A stretch of 64,000 nt of DNA from Syntrophotaleaceae bacterium (GTDB lineage Bacteria > Desulfobacterota > Desulfuromonadia > Desulfuromonadales > Syntrophotaleaceae): contig JAWKQB010000005.1 of assembly GCA_041390365.1 (NCBI GenBank), positions 32,457 through 96,456 of the forward strand. Reading direction: 5' to 3'. The notes beneath the pieces are model-generated. The model searched no databases, had not been told where the DNA came from, and saw nothing but the letters and a program-made list of their open reading frames with translations. Position numbers and translations under genes: made by a program. Positions 49,706 to 53,153 of this stretch are shown here, piece after piece. Numbering within the stretch: the first letter of the stretch is position 1; the number at the start of each line of letters is the position of its first letter.

Positions 49706-50896
49706 CATTTCAGTTTCCGCCAGTGCGCGCAGTTCCCGATACAGGATATTTCCGTCCTTGAACCCTTCCGCCTTCTGCAGAACCTCCCCATCAGGATTCA
49801 GGTAGACGACCATCGGGTAGTTTTCCTGCCCGAACTTCTCCTTGAACTGCTTTTCCACGTCCGAATTGATCTTCAGCCAGACGAACCGGTCCTGAAGACT
49901 TTTGACCCGGGGATCCTCCACGCTCTCGCCAAGCAGACGCTTGCACCAGGAACACCAGTCGGCGTAGAGAACCAGGACCGCCGGCTTGTTTTCCTGCCGG
50001 GCCCGTTTCAGGCCGCTGTCGAACTCCTCGCCCCAGACGATGATCTTTTCGTCGTAGGTACCGGCAGGAACCCGGGACAGAACCTCCAGGTCGAGAACGA
50101 GCGCCTTGCCGATCGTCAGGGGGTTGGCGTCCACCGTGAAAGAGACTCCATCGGTTGCCACGATTCTGCCCTTGCGGTCCTCGAGCATGAATTCGGCTCC
50201 GAGTTTGGGAGTAAGCCGCGTGAGGATCTTCTGATCCTCGACAAGGATCTGCACGGTGCCGAACGGTTCCTCTATCTCTTTTCCGTTTTCAGCCTGCATT
50301 TCGAGAACAACCGAACTTTCCTCGACTTTTGCGACCCTGGTCTGAATATAGGGTGAAAGGTGCAATTCCCTGCCGACCTCAGGAAAGCCGCCGGTCAATT
50401 GCACATATCTTTCTGCGGGCAGTACCAGGCTGACGGGAAAAACCTTTTCGCAGGGCAGCTCACGACGCAGAGAGGGATCGGCAGGGCCGAAAGCCTCCTC
50501 AGAAGGTACGGTCACAGTGCGGCTTTGGCCGGGAACCATGTCGAGCACCGCGCTCGCCAGTCCGGGCACGACAGCCGCCTTCCCGGCAACAACCTCCTCG
50601 GGCCGATACGCTTCCGGATCACGGTAACCGTCCATTCTGGCCCTGTCCGGATCGCGGGCCACTCCCTCGCGGGTAGTGTAGAGCAACCGACCGTCCTCCA
50701 GGGTCGCCGTCACCTCGACGGTCACGACATCTCCCGGGCCGACCGGACTGGAAGGAACCTCGGCAGAGGATGCATTTTTCGCCGTATCGATGACCGGAGA
50801 TGCGCAGCCAGCGGCAAAGAGGGCTCCAGTCAGGCCCAAAAGGCATAAACAGCTGAGACATAACCTTTTCAAGCAGATGCGCACCAGACCGATCAT
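49700..50896 (-). CDS. lipoprotein: SlyD-like FKBP-type PPIase domain(s) fused to a C-terminal thioredoxin-fold domain
   Basis: Lipobox LFAAGC. GDVVTVEVTATLEDGRLLYTT ... VDANPLTIGKALVLDLEV (FKBP/SlyD pattern). C-terminal AVLVLYADWCSWCKRL (Trx CxxC). ATGA overlap with the upstream FKBP gene. Confidence 0.65.
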   Translation of the reverse strand: MIGLVRICLKRLCLSCLCLLGLTGALFAAGCASPVIDTAKNASSAEVPSSPVGPGDVVTVEVTATLEDGRLLYTTREGVARDPDRARMDGYRDPEAYRPEEVVAGKAAVVPGLASAVLDMVPGQSRTVTVPSEEAFGPADPSLRRELPCEKVFPVSLVLPAERYVQLTGGFPEVGRELHLSPYIQTRVAKVEESSVVLEMQAENGKEIEEPFGTVQILVEDQKILTRLTPKLGAEFMLEDRKGRIVATDGVSFTVDANPLTIGKALVLDLEVLSRVPAGTYDEKIIVWGEEFDSGLKRARQENKPAVLVLYADWCSWCKRLLGESVEDPRVKSLQDRFVWLKINSDVEKQFKEKFGQENYPMVVYLNPDGEVLQKAEGFKDGNILYRELRALAETEMP

Positions 50897-51705
50897 GGAA
50901 TCTGACTCTCCTCTCCCCTGGAAACCTCAACATCGCAAACCAGATTCTGGCCGGCCAGAGGATGACCATAATCAACGGTGAAAAAGGCATCGTCCACATC
51001 GGCAACCTTGCCAACCATAGGACCCGAACGCACCAGATCTCCTTTTTCCACTAGGATTTCCAGCAGATAGGAGTTCTGATCGGCACTGACCCTGGCCCTG
51101 CCAAAGGGGGTATCGATCAATTCGCCGACGGGGGCGTGAAAGTCGACCACCACTTCGCTTTCGCTGACTGAAGTCACTTTTCCCGGGATGGCCGGATCGA
51201 AGGTCATTTCCTGACCAATTTCGGGATTTTTCCCGGTCCGGCCTTTGTATTCATCGACGGTCATATGCAGCCCTCGGGGGCGCCGCCGCACCTTCGCCAG
51301 CCTTATGGTCCCGGAGGGCCTGACCGGGGCCTTGGCCGCGGCAACTTCAATCCCGCTCAAAGTCCCCGGTACCTGACCAACGACGGCCTGTCCAAGCTGA
51401 ACGGCGATGGCATCAGCAAAATCGAAGGGGGCCGAGCCGCTCTGGGAAACCTTTTCCTGGCCTGCGATCCATTCAAGAGGAGCATCGTTTTTCAGAGCCA
51501 GGTAGATGGCGGACCTCTTCTCCTCGGGGCTGATCGCTCCATCCCTGTAGGTGGAGGCGGTCAGTTCGCCATTTTTCAGGCGGCAGACATAATTTATCCG
51601 CACCCTGTCACCGCTCCGGAAAGGCATTTCATTCTGCGCAGCCGCCGGATATGACACCAAAATGGCTGCGCCCAACAACAAATAAGTAAATAGAGAGAAC
51701 TTCAT
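50893..51705 (-). CDS. secreted SlyD-like FKBP-type peptidyl-prolyl isomerase
   Basis: ATG at 51705 with a GGAG SD (MKFSLFTYLLLGAAILVSYPAAA signal). GDRVRINYVCRLKNGELTAST ... VDYGHPLAGQNLVCDVEV. Confidence 0.7.
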   Translation of the reverse strand: MKFSLFTYLLLGAAILVSYPAAAQNEMPFRSGDRVRINYVCRLKNGELTASTYRDGAISPEEKRSAIYLALKNDAPLEWIAGQEKVSQSGSAPFDFADAIAVQLGQAVVGQVPGTLSGIEVAAAKAPVRPSGTIRLAKVRRRPRGLHMTVDEYKGRTGKNPEIGQEMTFDPAIPGKVTSVSESEVVVDFHAPVGELIDTPFGRARVSADQNSYLLEILVEKGDLVRSGPMVGKVADVDDAFFTVDYGHPLAGQNLVCDVEVSRGEESQIP

Positions 51706-51741
51706 AGGCACTCCGTCAATTCGCGTCATTTATCCGGGCGG

Positions 51742-51793
51742 CAAAAAAACAAAACCCCAGCCGATAGGGTGCAATAAACCCTCTCGGCTGGGG
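51742..51793 (-). terminator. strong Rho-independent terminator, 37 nt upstream of the FKBP start codon
   Basis: Minus-strand RNA CCCCAGCCGAGAGGG-UUUAUUGCA-CCCUAUCGGCUGGGG (14 bp, 1 mismatch) followed by UUUUGUUUUUUUG. Confidence 0.8.
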
Positions 51794-51920
51794 CTGTTCG
51801 ATACCTGATAAGGTCGAACCGGTAACCCGGCCTCTGGTGTCCGATACTTTTCGCGGCCGAAAAGGCCGTATTTCCGGTCGCCGGCTGCCTCAAAAGATTC
51901 CCGGACGACACGGGAACTTT
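51794..51920 (-). promoter_or_regulatory. structured leader (candidate riboswitch, attenuator or small RNA) ending in the terminator above
   Basis: Successive hairpins in the minus-strand RNA: UUCCCG-ugucguc-CGGGAA; CCG-GAA-AUAC[CGGCC-uuuuc-GGCCG]CGAAAAGUAUCGG; GUUCGA-ccuuaucaggua-UCGAAC. No upstream minus-strand gene exists, because the neighbouring gene is divergent. Confidence 0.45.
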
Positions 51921-52109
51921 TTATAGAAGAGAAATGTTAGGAGAATATTTTTTGAATCGCCTTTCTGACAATTTTTTGACCGGGCCTTTTCCGCTTCATT
52001 TTTTACACCCCCTCCTTGACCTTCATAGGCGGAGGTGGGGATAATTACAGCTCCAGGAGGCTGGTTACCATCTTTTTCAATTCCATTCTCAACAACAAAG
52101 GTCTTTCAT

Positions 52110-53153
52110 ATGCATTTGTTTTTTCGTCGTTTTTTCCCCCTGATCACCCTTCCGCTCGCCATTGCCTGCTGTGTGCCGCAACCGGAAGTTGCCTCTCCCG
52201 ATCCGGTTCGATTGCAACAGCCCGATGCCAGCACCACCAACCCGGCCAGCGCCGACTTCGACCGCTGGGTGGAGGAGCTGGCCATCGAGGCGAGGAGCCG
52301 GGGGATCAGTGAAACCACCCTTGCGGACGCCCTGACCGGCCTGCAGCCTATCCCGCTGGCAGTAAAAGCGGCAGGGAAACAGGCCGAAGATGTTTTTTCC
52401 GCCCGCCGCTATCTGGAACGGATGGTCTCGGAGAACCGGATTCGCCAGGGCATTCTGCAGATACGGGAAAAAGAGGCTCTTTTTGAAAGGGTTCACGACA
52501 CCTACGGAGTGCAGCCGGCCTACCTCGCAGCCTTGTGGGCCATCGAAAGCGATTTCGGCAAGGGCAAGGCCCGCTTTCCCCTGGTCGGGGCACTGGCGAC
52601 CCAGGCATGGCAGGGCCAGCGCCGCGAATTTTTTCGCCGCGAGCTGCTGGCGGCCCTGGAAATCCTCGACCGGGAGGGGATGAAAAGCGCCGACCTGCGC
52701 GGTTCGTGGGCGGGGGCGAGCGGGCAGTTCCAGTTCATCCCCACCAGTTACCTCCACTATGCGGTCGATTTCGACGGCGACGGTCACCGTGATATCTGGA
52801 CCGATCCCGCGGACGCCCTTGCCTCGGCGGCGAATTTTCTCAAGGAGGCGCGCTGGCGGCCGGATCAGGAATGGGGCAGGGAAATTCAGCTGCCCGCCAG
52901 GTTCGATCCCGCCCTGGCCGGACTGAAGGTGCGCAAGCCTCTGGCGGAATGGCGGAAACAGGGGCTCGCTGAAGCCGCCGGCCCCGCGGATCGGATGGCC
53001 TCACTCCTGCTGCCCGACGGCCCGGAAGGACCGGCCTTTCTGGTCTTCGACAATTTTCGCGTGCTGATGCGCTGGAACCGCTCCAGCTCCTTTGCCCTGG
53101 CTGTCGGAACCCTGGCGGACAGGATTGAAATGGGAGTGAGGAGTGAGGGGTAA
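52110..53153 (+). CDS. lytic murein transglycosylase (MltB/SLT_2 family) lipoprotein
   Basis: Trimmed to the ATG at 52110 (MHLFFRRFFPLITLPLAIACC lipobox). YGVQPAYLAALWAIESDFG, GSWAGASGQFQFIPTSY, AVDFDGDGHRDIW. Confidence 0.85.
   Translation: MHLFFRRFFPLITLPLAIACCVPQPEVASPDPVRLQQPDASTTNPASADFDRWVEELAIEARSRGISETTLADALTGLQPIPLAVKAAGKQAEDVFSARRYLERMVSENRIRQGILQIREKEALFERVHDTYGVQPAYLAALWAIESDFGKGKARFPLVGALATQAWQGQRREFFRRELLAALEILDREGMKSADLRGSWAGASGQFQFIPTSYLHYAVDFDGDGHRDIWTDPADALASAANFLKEARWRPDQEWGREIQLPARFDPALAGLKVRKPLAEWRKQGLAEAAGPADRMASLLLPDGPEGPAFLVFDNFRVLMRWNRSSSFALAVGTLADRIEMGVRSEG
53132..53152. repeat. heptamer array GAGTGAG-type (3 units) spanning the mltB-like stop and the hydrolase GTG start
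   Basis: gggagtg aggagtg aggggta. Confidence 0.8.

Follow-up and report, generated by a model that had tools for sequence, protein, structure and literature searches.

A conserved terminator-bearing leader behind a predicted Pho-box promoter precedes a two-partner secretion operon in Syntrophotalea/Pelobacter-like Desulfuromonadales

Results

Gene context of the leader

The 64,000-nt stretch of DNA analyzed here (the window) derives from a wastewater MAG, and the closest reference genome carrying the locus is labelled 'uncultured Syntrophotalea sp.'. The leader described below stands at the head of an operon that spans approximately 22 kb on one strand and has the following gene order:

Gene 1, minus strand, FKBP-like protein without Pfam match, 30% identical to the FKBP part of gene 2
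Gene 2, minus strand, FKBP_C-thioredoxin fusion
Gene 3, minus strand, TpsB (ShlB/POTRA_2)
Gene 4, minus strand, TpsA of 3362 aa with TPS and DUF3739 domains
Next genes, minus strand, DUF2341-LamG-ExbB fusion, ExbD and TonB
Next genes, minus strand, Porin_5 protein and coiled-coil protein
Last genes, minus strand, SurA-like parvulin and thioredoxin-fold protein

On the other side of the leader, the gene of an SLT_2 lytic transglycosylase (52110-53153) is located on the plus strand and is divergent from the leader, so that no co-directional gene lies upstream. The preliminary description of this DNA, which called the neighbour mltB-like, had read the arrangement in the same way.

Three metatranscriptomes of the study from which the window comes yielded contigs of this region only at 50509-50667 and 52164-52300, which indicate low-level transcription of the FKBP-thioredoxin gene and of the divergent mltB-like gene, respectively. 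The window's own sample is represented by DNA runs only, and we found no RNA run holding the leader locus; a search for RNA runs with the corresponding locus of G011, a second genome that carries the leader, also returned none.

A stable terminator hairpin precedes the first start codon

The 3′ end of the leader and the beginning of the first gene comprise the elements listed here:

51755-51796, minus strand, terminator hairpin with a stem of 16 positions (15 pairs and one G.A mismatch)
51778-51796, minus strand, 5′ strand of the terminator, followed by the loop (51771-51777) and the 3′ strand (51755-51770), as read from sequence and folding
51742-51754, minus strand, U-tract UUUUGUUUUUUUG, read from the sequence
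51711-51717, minus strand, Shine-Dalgarno sequence GACGGAG of the FKBP-like first gene
51703-51705, minus strand, ATG of the same gene, whose signal-peptide start aligns with orthologues

The minus strand of 51742-51796 reads CAGCCCCAGCCGAGAGGGU-UUAUUGC-ACCCUAUCGGCUGGGG-UUUUGUUUUUUUG. Two arms, CCCCAGCCGAgAGGGU and ACCCUaUCGGCUGGGG, enclose a 7-nt loop (51755-51793, minus strand), and a flanking CAG extends the stem to 51796. The hairpin has the features of an intrinsic terminator, as it is GC-rich and is followed by UUUUGUUUUUUU, with the U-run absent on the reverse strand. Together with its flanks it folds with a predicted energy of -34 kcal/mol in the window, and values from -31 to -47 kcal/mol were calculated for its relatives. 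For the FKBP-like gene, ATG 51705 is the most likely start, as GACGGAG lies before it and a signal peptide comes after it. Another listed ATG, further upstream at 51729, is probably unused, because the orthologues align from 51705. The distance from the U-tract to ATG 51705 is 36 nt. In the preliminary description the stem had 14 bp and ended 37 nt from the FKBP start; the GC-rich hairpin and its closeness to the gene were recognized correctly, while the stem measures 15-16 bp and the distance is one nucleotide shorter.

Given a promoter at 51920-51951 (see below) and a start site inferred from it, the terminator (51742-51796) would sit within the 5′ UTR of the gene starting at 51705. Folding of the 204-nt leader gave a minimum free energy of -78.4 kcal/mol, compared to -61.4 +/- 4.2 kcal/mol for 200 dinucleotide shuffles (z = -4.03), none of which (0/200) folded as well. 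Sequence and folding thus agree with the original proposal of a structured leader that ends in a strong terminator before the first foldase gene.

To follow the leader in relatives we combined a DNA search of related genomes, look-ups of orthologous proteins and an exact-pattern scan of public collections. Eight distinct versions were obtained (the window, L002, L007, L008, L011, L014, L015 and L017); L012 and L016 were left out as chance matches within coding DNA. The terminator hairpin is kept in 8/8 sequences, and a U-rich tail follows the stem, which is sometimes extended, in 7/8, the tail being weaker in L002. Of the alignment cells in the terminator helix 97.8% are paired; the changes are a single compensatory pair and several exchanges between G-C and G-U.

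The leader is preceded by a predicted Pho-box promoter

Upstream of the leader we recognized three further elements:

51934-51951, minus strand, predicted Pho box AAAATAT-TCTC-CTAACAT, made of two 7-nt half-sites (period 11 bp) that replace the -35 element
51920-51925, minus strand, predicted -10 element TATAAA, a TAnAnn/TAnnnT hexamer that all TPS leaders have 8 nt downstream of the box
51966-51981, minus strand, direct repeat GGTCAAAAAATTGTCA (TGTCA-N6-TGTCA type), present in the window, L002, L008 and L014

All leader sequences that reach far enough share AATAYTnTCCTAACAWT, in which CCTAACAWT is invariant (7/7). From the positions of the box and the -10 hexamer, transcription is predicted to start at approximately 51911-51917; with a start near 51913, the RNA up to the U-tract would therefore be about 170 nt long.

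The pattern HWAMHAY-N4-CTAACAW has six matches in the 4.2-Mb genome, belonging to the phoB-like gene, pstS, ppk1, the leader and two other sites. A tighter form, CTAAYAY-N4-CTAACAW, stands before each of the Pho transcription units of this genome, that is, the phoB-like regulator with its kinase, pstS, and ppk1. Across the family (15/17 genomes) the same motif precedes phoB orthologues, genes of a PHO4/Pit-like transporter, and ppk, and the box is separated from TAnAnn by 7-8 nt at the phoB and pit promoters of the relatives. As for the identity of these genes, the phoB-like product (C1:244141-244833) has PhoB as its top NCBIfam match with 244 bits, under the equivalog cut-off of 296 bits, its gene is followed by that of a PnpS/PhoR-type kinase, and the PstS-family gene of this genome scores above its curated cut-off. 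The phoB-like regulator, the PhoR/PnpS-like kinase and pstS are clustered (C1:244073-247850), and ppk1 lies apart from them (C2:528604-528621).

PhoB-dependent promoters of E. coli carry a Pho box, CTGTCAT-N4-CTGTCAT, whose 7-nt direct repeats have an 11-bp period and replace the -35 element. The region before the leader is organized alike, with two 7-nt repeats of 11-bp period in the -35 place and a -10 hexamer downstream, but its half-sites are CTAAYAY/CTAACAW. Since this arrangement comes with a motif that is shared by core Pho genes, the leader promoter is predicted, by regulon comparison, to be a Pho-box promoter of PhoB type. The preliminary description had missed the Pho box of the promoter, which supplies what is predicted to be the first regulatory input into the operon.

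The repeat GGTCAAAAAATTGTCA occurs in 4/7 leaders and looks like a pair of E. coli-type Pho box half-sites. It is located 26 nt before TAACA in the window and 35-36 nt before it in L002, L008 and L014, a difference of one helical turn, the window having the closer spacing. It was not seen at the promoters of phoB, pstS or ppk. The repeat could serve a second OmpR-family regulator as binding site, its relevance being uncertain.

A 95-nt core is conserved and travels with TPS genes

A core of about 95 nt, comprising CCGGGUUAC, a small hairpin (P1) and the terminator, was found in eight distinct contigs from one Desulfuromonadales clade. Its parts follow each other in the order CCGGGUUAC, 4 variable nt, UCGACC, a loop, GGUAUCGAACAGCCCCAGCCGAcAGGGUU, a second loop, ACCCUnUCGGCUGGGG and the U-rich tail, and 56 of the 112 columns of the alignment are invariant (n = 8). 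Pairwise identity of the core is 76-90%. For the same pairs, the proteins encoded by the adjacent FKBP-like gene are 53-67% identical, and the third codon positions of this gene 35-62%; L015 and L017, a near-identical pair (94% for the FKBP-like protein, 90% for third codon positions), are the exception. Judging from this comparison the core is selectively maintained, being conserved far beyond neutrality. Conservation of the leader in relatives had been named in the preliminary description as a test of its proposal, and for the core the outcome was clearly positive.

Leader copies precede these TPS genes in all eight contigs, which bears out the earlier suggestion that the leader is tied to the FKBP-TpsBA-Ton string. 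In seven contigs it is the FKBP-like gene that the leader precedes. In L014, the box and the leader stand directly before tpsA, the product of which is 77% identical to TpsA of the window. This metagenomic relative (L014:2664-3003) carries a lone tpsA with its own box and leader, adjoining a divergent PBP_like_2 (PstS-like) gene; the operon is thus split here, with both parts retaining the leader.

A covariance model of the core (R1) gave 108.8 bits in the window's own genome (G000) and 104.3 bits in G011. No other score exceeded approximately 34 bits when genomes of the order (n = 233), the class (n = 401) and the phylum (n = 401) were searched, and matches of 20-30 bits were generic AGCCCC..GGGGCU terminators. 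Only a handful of species carry the motif, which is missing from more distant orthologous operons, in which the FKBP-thioredoxin protein is 50-54% identical. At L051:2590-2665 and L053:2600-2675 there is no core; a box-like TTCACSAAAYCTTAACAW precedes the ATG by about 45 nt, with an orphan terminator-like hairpin farther upstream. As the distant operons lack the leader but have the box-like sequence, the leader seems to have been inserted, in one small clade, between the promoter and the operon.

The 5′ part of the leader is variable

Upstream of the core lies a region that differs between the relatives:

51833-51917, minus strand, variable 5′ part with hairpins at 51897-51917 and 51841-51889, conserved neither in sequence nor in length

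Box and core are 75-78 nt apart in four relatives, 104 nt in the window, and 225 nt in L015 and L017. A central GC-rich hairpin is predicted in the 5′ part of most leaders. In L015 and L017 the stretch between box and core contains about 150 nt of inserted sequence, which may be a small mobile element and folds as one long imperfect hairpin; the 5′ half of the leader therefore tolerates large changes. By alignment, the conserved part of the leader is its 3′ portion of about 95 nt. The preliminary description had emphasized approximately 130 nt with three hairpins before the terminator. They do belong to a leader element, yet most of this stretch varies among relatives and accommodates the 150-nt insertion, and the hairpin with the CGAAAAG internal loop, which was singled out, is window-specific and not conserved.

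Several candidates for a regulatory role of the 5′ part were rejected. Leader-peptide attenuation was set aside, as the leader has no ATG. A 61-aa ORF starting with GTG (51726-51911, minus strand) runs through the terminator and is not considered a gene, because indels in the relatives do not preserve its frame. Complementarity between the 5′ part and the terminator was no better than in shuffled controls. An upstream mimic of the terminator 3′ strand, tried as a conserved antiterminator, forms a 12-bp match in the window (-19.4 kcal/mol), but the best duplexes found across the relatives do not surpass those of shuffled controls. A helix that would join GGCCGGGUU to the box region over a long range was dropped because part of it lies upstream of the predicted start site.

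P1 and a candidate antiterminator in the conserved core

The pairing potential of the core involves, besides the terminator, the following segments:

51797-51818, minus strand, P1 hairpin UUCGACC-loop-GGuaUCGAA with a UA bulge, stem identical in 8/8 sequences, loop variable
51824-51832, minus strand, GGCCGGGUU, proposed 5′ strand of the antiterminator within the invariant CCGGGUUAC, from RNAalifold with the terminator 3′ strand masked
51786-51795, minus strand, AGCCCCAGCC, part of the terminator 5′ strand and proposed 3′ strand of the antiterminator

The P1 loop, of 4 to 7 nt, is variable in length as well as in sequence, and the terminator loop varies also, with the arms of both hairpins remaining fixed. 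A loop of variable length favours an RNA hairpin over a DNA operator. In P1 and terminator taken together 97.5% of cells are paired, as compared with 30-51% after shifting the partners against each other by 1-3 columns. They show one compensatory pair, a number that 62/500 shuffles reach as well in this underpowered alignment of eight sequences. Because both stems hardly vary, the case for the structure is built on their maintenance and on the variable loop lengths and not on covariation statistics.

When the terminator 3′ strand was masked, RNAalifold paired RGC.GGGUU with AGCCC..GCC around P1. The resulting candidate antiterminator hairpin is the minimum free energy structure of the isolated segment in 6/8 sequences (about -12 to -17 kcal/mol), and the same hairpin or a close variant forms in L002, L007, L008 and L014 (4/8) when the RNA is folded from the predicted start to the terminator loop. 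It is 15-30 kcal/mol weaker than the terminator. In its helix 63/64 cells are paired, and compensatory changes are seen at two positions: in L008 one position has A-U in place of G-C, and in L015 and L017 a different position does. L007 has a G-U pair and L002 an A.C mismatch. With most positions invariant, the shuffle p value is 0.05, or 0.12 with L015 and L017 taken as one lineage, so the covariation support for this pairing is suggestive only.

The terminator nucleotides that are shared with the antiterminator keep their pairing to the terminator 3′ strand by way of U-G wobbles. A pairing constraint of this three-way kind would account for the invariance of CCGGGUUAC and of the left shoulder of the terminator.

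Comparison with known leader elements

Scanning of the whole window with Rfam 15, whose families include GEMM-I/II, TPP, cobalamin, glycine, fluoride and thiS, gave no match at gathering score. Within 51600-52200, at E <= 10, only terminator-driven noise was obtained, with the rnk leader as the best match (20.5 bits vs. a threshold of 55). This is in line with the preliminary description, in which GEMM-I, TPP, cobalamin, glycine and fluoride signatures had been looked for in vain.

Like transcriptional riboswitches and attenuators, the element is a 5′ leader with a small hairpin directly before an intrinsic terminator, with conserved nucleotides on the left shoulder of the terminator and an upstream segment that may compete for this shoulder. 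Among these elements the HMP-PP (thiS) riboswitch, with its aptamer embedded in the terminator, has the most similar layout. The leader differs from these elements in having no Rfam match and in stems that are invariant rather than covarying, and its gene context of adhesin secretion and Pho regulon is unrelated to that of a thiS-type riboswitch.

The RAT-terminator switches of BglG, SacY and LicT are similar in that a hairpin with internal loops overlaps the terminator 5′ strand, and the GUUACUG string of the leader resembles the RAT consensus. These systems differ by their sugar-PTS context, which is lacking at the leader locus. The RNA-binding domain CAT_RBD (PF03123) is absent from G000 (100% complete) and from G011, with matches in control genomes, and a mechanism of this type was rejected.

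Operons under RfaH-ops or LoaP control share with this one the great length (here about 22 kb), extracytoplasmic products and a conserved leader element, and with LoaP also terminators in the leader. RfaH acts with ops, and no ops-like sequence was seen in the leader. We rejected this type too: 15/17 family genomes, including G000, have a single NusG (PF02357) and no paralogue (the search returned none in G011 and G012). A boxA of the rrn/lambda kind (NusB-NusE) was likewise discarded, since the boxA of rrn operons in the family is GCTGGTCTTTGAAAACTAAAT, which the leader's TCTCCTAACAAT matches poorly; TCTCCTAACAAT is located upstream of the predicted transcription start.

Discussion

A candidate attenuator behind a predicted Pho promoter

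The reading that we favour, with a confidence a little better than even, is that the TPS operon is controlled by a Pho promoter followed by a factor-dependent terminator/antiterminator attenuator. Transcription would start near 51913 from the PhoB-type promoter (box 51934-51951, -10 element 51920-51925). A promoter of this type implies, on comparative genomic grounds, that the operon would be switched on by phosphate limitation. The conserved 3′ part of the leader, about 95 nt, could then adopt two mutually exclusive folds. In one, GGCCGGGUU would pair with AGCCCCAGCC around P1 to form the antiterminator; in the other, AGCCCCAGCC would be taken into the far more stable terminator, after which the U-tract follows. 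By default the terminator would win, and RNA polymerase would stop 36 nt before the first start codon. A factor that stabilizes the antiterminator, be it a small ligand, a protein or the kinetics of transcription, would allow readthrough into the 22-kb operon.

If this is correct, the operon is subject to two serial checks, phosphate starvation at the promoter and a further signal at the terminator, and what is gated is a 3362-aa secreted fibre with its dedicated folding and Ton machinery. It would be a testable example of costly secretion systems that are held tightly off, and it predicts a phosphate-scavenging or attachment role for the TPS system. A precedent for phosphate control is the two-partner secretion system pdtB-pdtA of P. 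aeruginosa (PMC5422565), which differs in being controlled also via PUMA3 / sigma-VreI, and for which no leader terminator is described there. The Syntrophotalea/Pelobacter-like Desulfuromonadales also gain a leader motif that RNA catalogues lack, together with a Pho-box consensus.

The preliminary description had proposed a riboswitch or attenuator. A leader with a terminator between promoter and gene agrees with this; its riboswitch half fared less well, as no aptamer-type covariation was found. A specific form of that idea, which we put forward tentatively and regard as unlikely, is that the antiterminator hairpin (GGCCGGGUUAC, P1 with its UA bulge, AACAGCCCCAGCC) is itself the aptamer of a new class of ON-riboswitch. 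Its pocket would overlap the terminator, and a second signal, a metabolite or ion, would be added to PhoB control of the giant-adhesin operon.

Alternative explanations

The leader might instead be a Pho-induced, trans-acting sRNA of about 170 nt with its 3′ end at the terminator, the operon being expressed by leak-through or from its own promoter. The seed would in this case be the invariant CCGGGUUAC or GGUAUCGAACAG. Such an RNA would be well served by a promoter of its own and by the strong terminator, whose long U tail is typical of the 3′ end of Hfq-type sRNAs, and the invariance of the sequence is greater than pairing alone needs. Room for a separate operon promoter exists in L002, L007, L008, L011 and L014, where spacers of 100-190 nt follow the terminator and contain a conserved (C/G)TAACC..TGGCT element (L002:1615-1650, L007:1850-1880, L008:2925-2960, L011:150-185 and L014 at about 2960-2990). 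In L002 and L007 it takes the form CTAACCR-N4-TTAACGG, a Pho-box-like direct repeat with an 11-bp period. This element, seen in four or five relatives, might be a second promoter or regulator box; alternatively, at the RNA level, it could be a complement of the invariant GGGUUAC. It does not occur in the window, where the terminator is just 36 nt from the ATG, and a consensus scan for sigma-70 promoters between terminator and gene found none in the window, L008, L002 and L007. Against the sRNA speaks also the constant linkage to TPS genes, including the duplicate before the lone tpsA, neither of which a trans-acting RNA needs. Moreover, the invariant nucleotides are mostly within stems, the single-stranded 5′ part is variable, and there is one copy per genome. 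We therefore consider an sRNA doubtful.

It is improbable, in our opinion, that the leader is constitutive and does not switch at all, its leaky terminator and hairpins serving to damp expression of a costly operon, to insulate it or to stabilize its 5′ end. The far greater stability of the terminator over alternative folds would fit this, as would the failure to find candidate effector proteins (CAT_RBD, a NusG paralogue) in the genomes searched and the non-significant covariation of the antiterminator. In sister genera, the Pho boxes upstream of pit-like genes are likewise followed by leaders with terminators, which may point to a general design habit. But a plain terminator needs no sequence conservation, so that this explanation leaves unaccounted for the approximately 45 contiguous nt, P1 and the CCGGGUUAC upstream of the terminator among them, that are invariant in spite of saturated synonymous sites.

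Action at the level of DNA, with the core as a set of regulator binding sites and incidental hairpins, might draw on the stems being invariant without covariation and on GGGTTAC being the reverse complement of GTAACCC, which resembles the box half-site CTAAC, but is very improbable in view of the P1 (4 to 7 nt) and terminator loops varying between fixed arms, the U-tract following the block on one strand only, and the fraction of paired cells (97.5%) dropping to 30-51% after a slide of 1-3 columns.

Leaders of pit-like genes in sister genera

The PHO4/Pit-like phosphate transporter genes of sister genera (L058, L062, L063, L077 and L068, from about position 1501 onward) have a Pho box, then about 100 nt, and then a conserved intrinsic terminator, GCCGGACAGAC..GUCUGCCCGG UUUUUUGCGG, which is followed by 100-130 nt to the ATG. 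These leaders gave no match to Rfam, making them a second uncatalogued leader, and comparison of the TPS leader with the pit-gene leaders revealed no convincing common motif. Taken with the ON-riboswitch idea, which we regard as unlikely, the shared layout of a Pho box and then a terminator might reflect a common phosphate-linked attenuation mechanism, so far undescribed.
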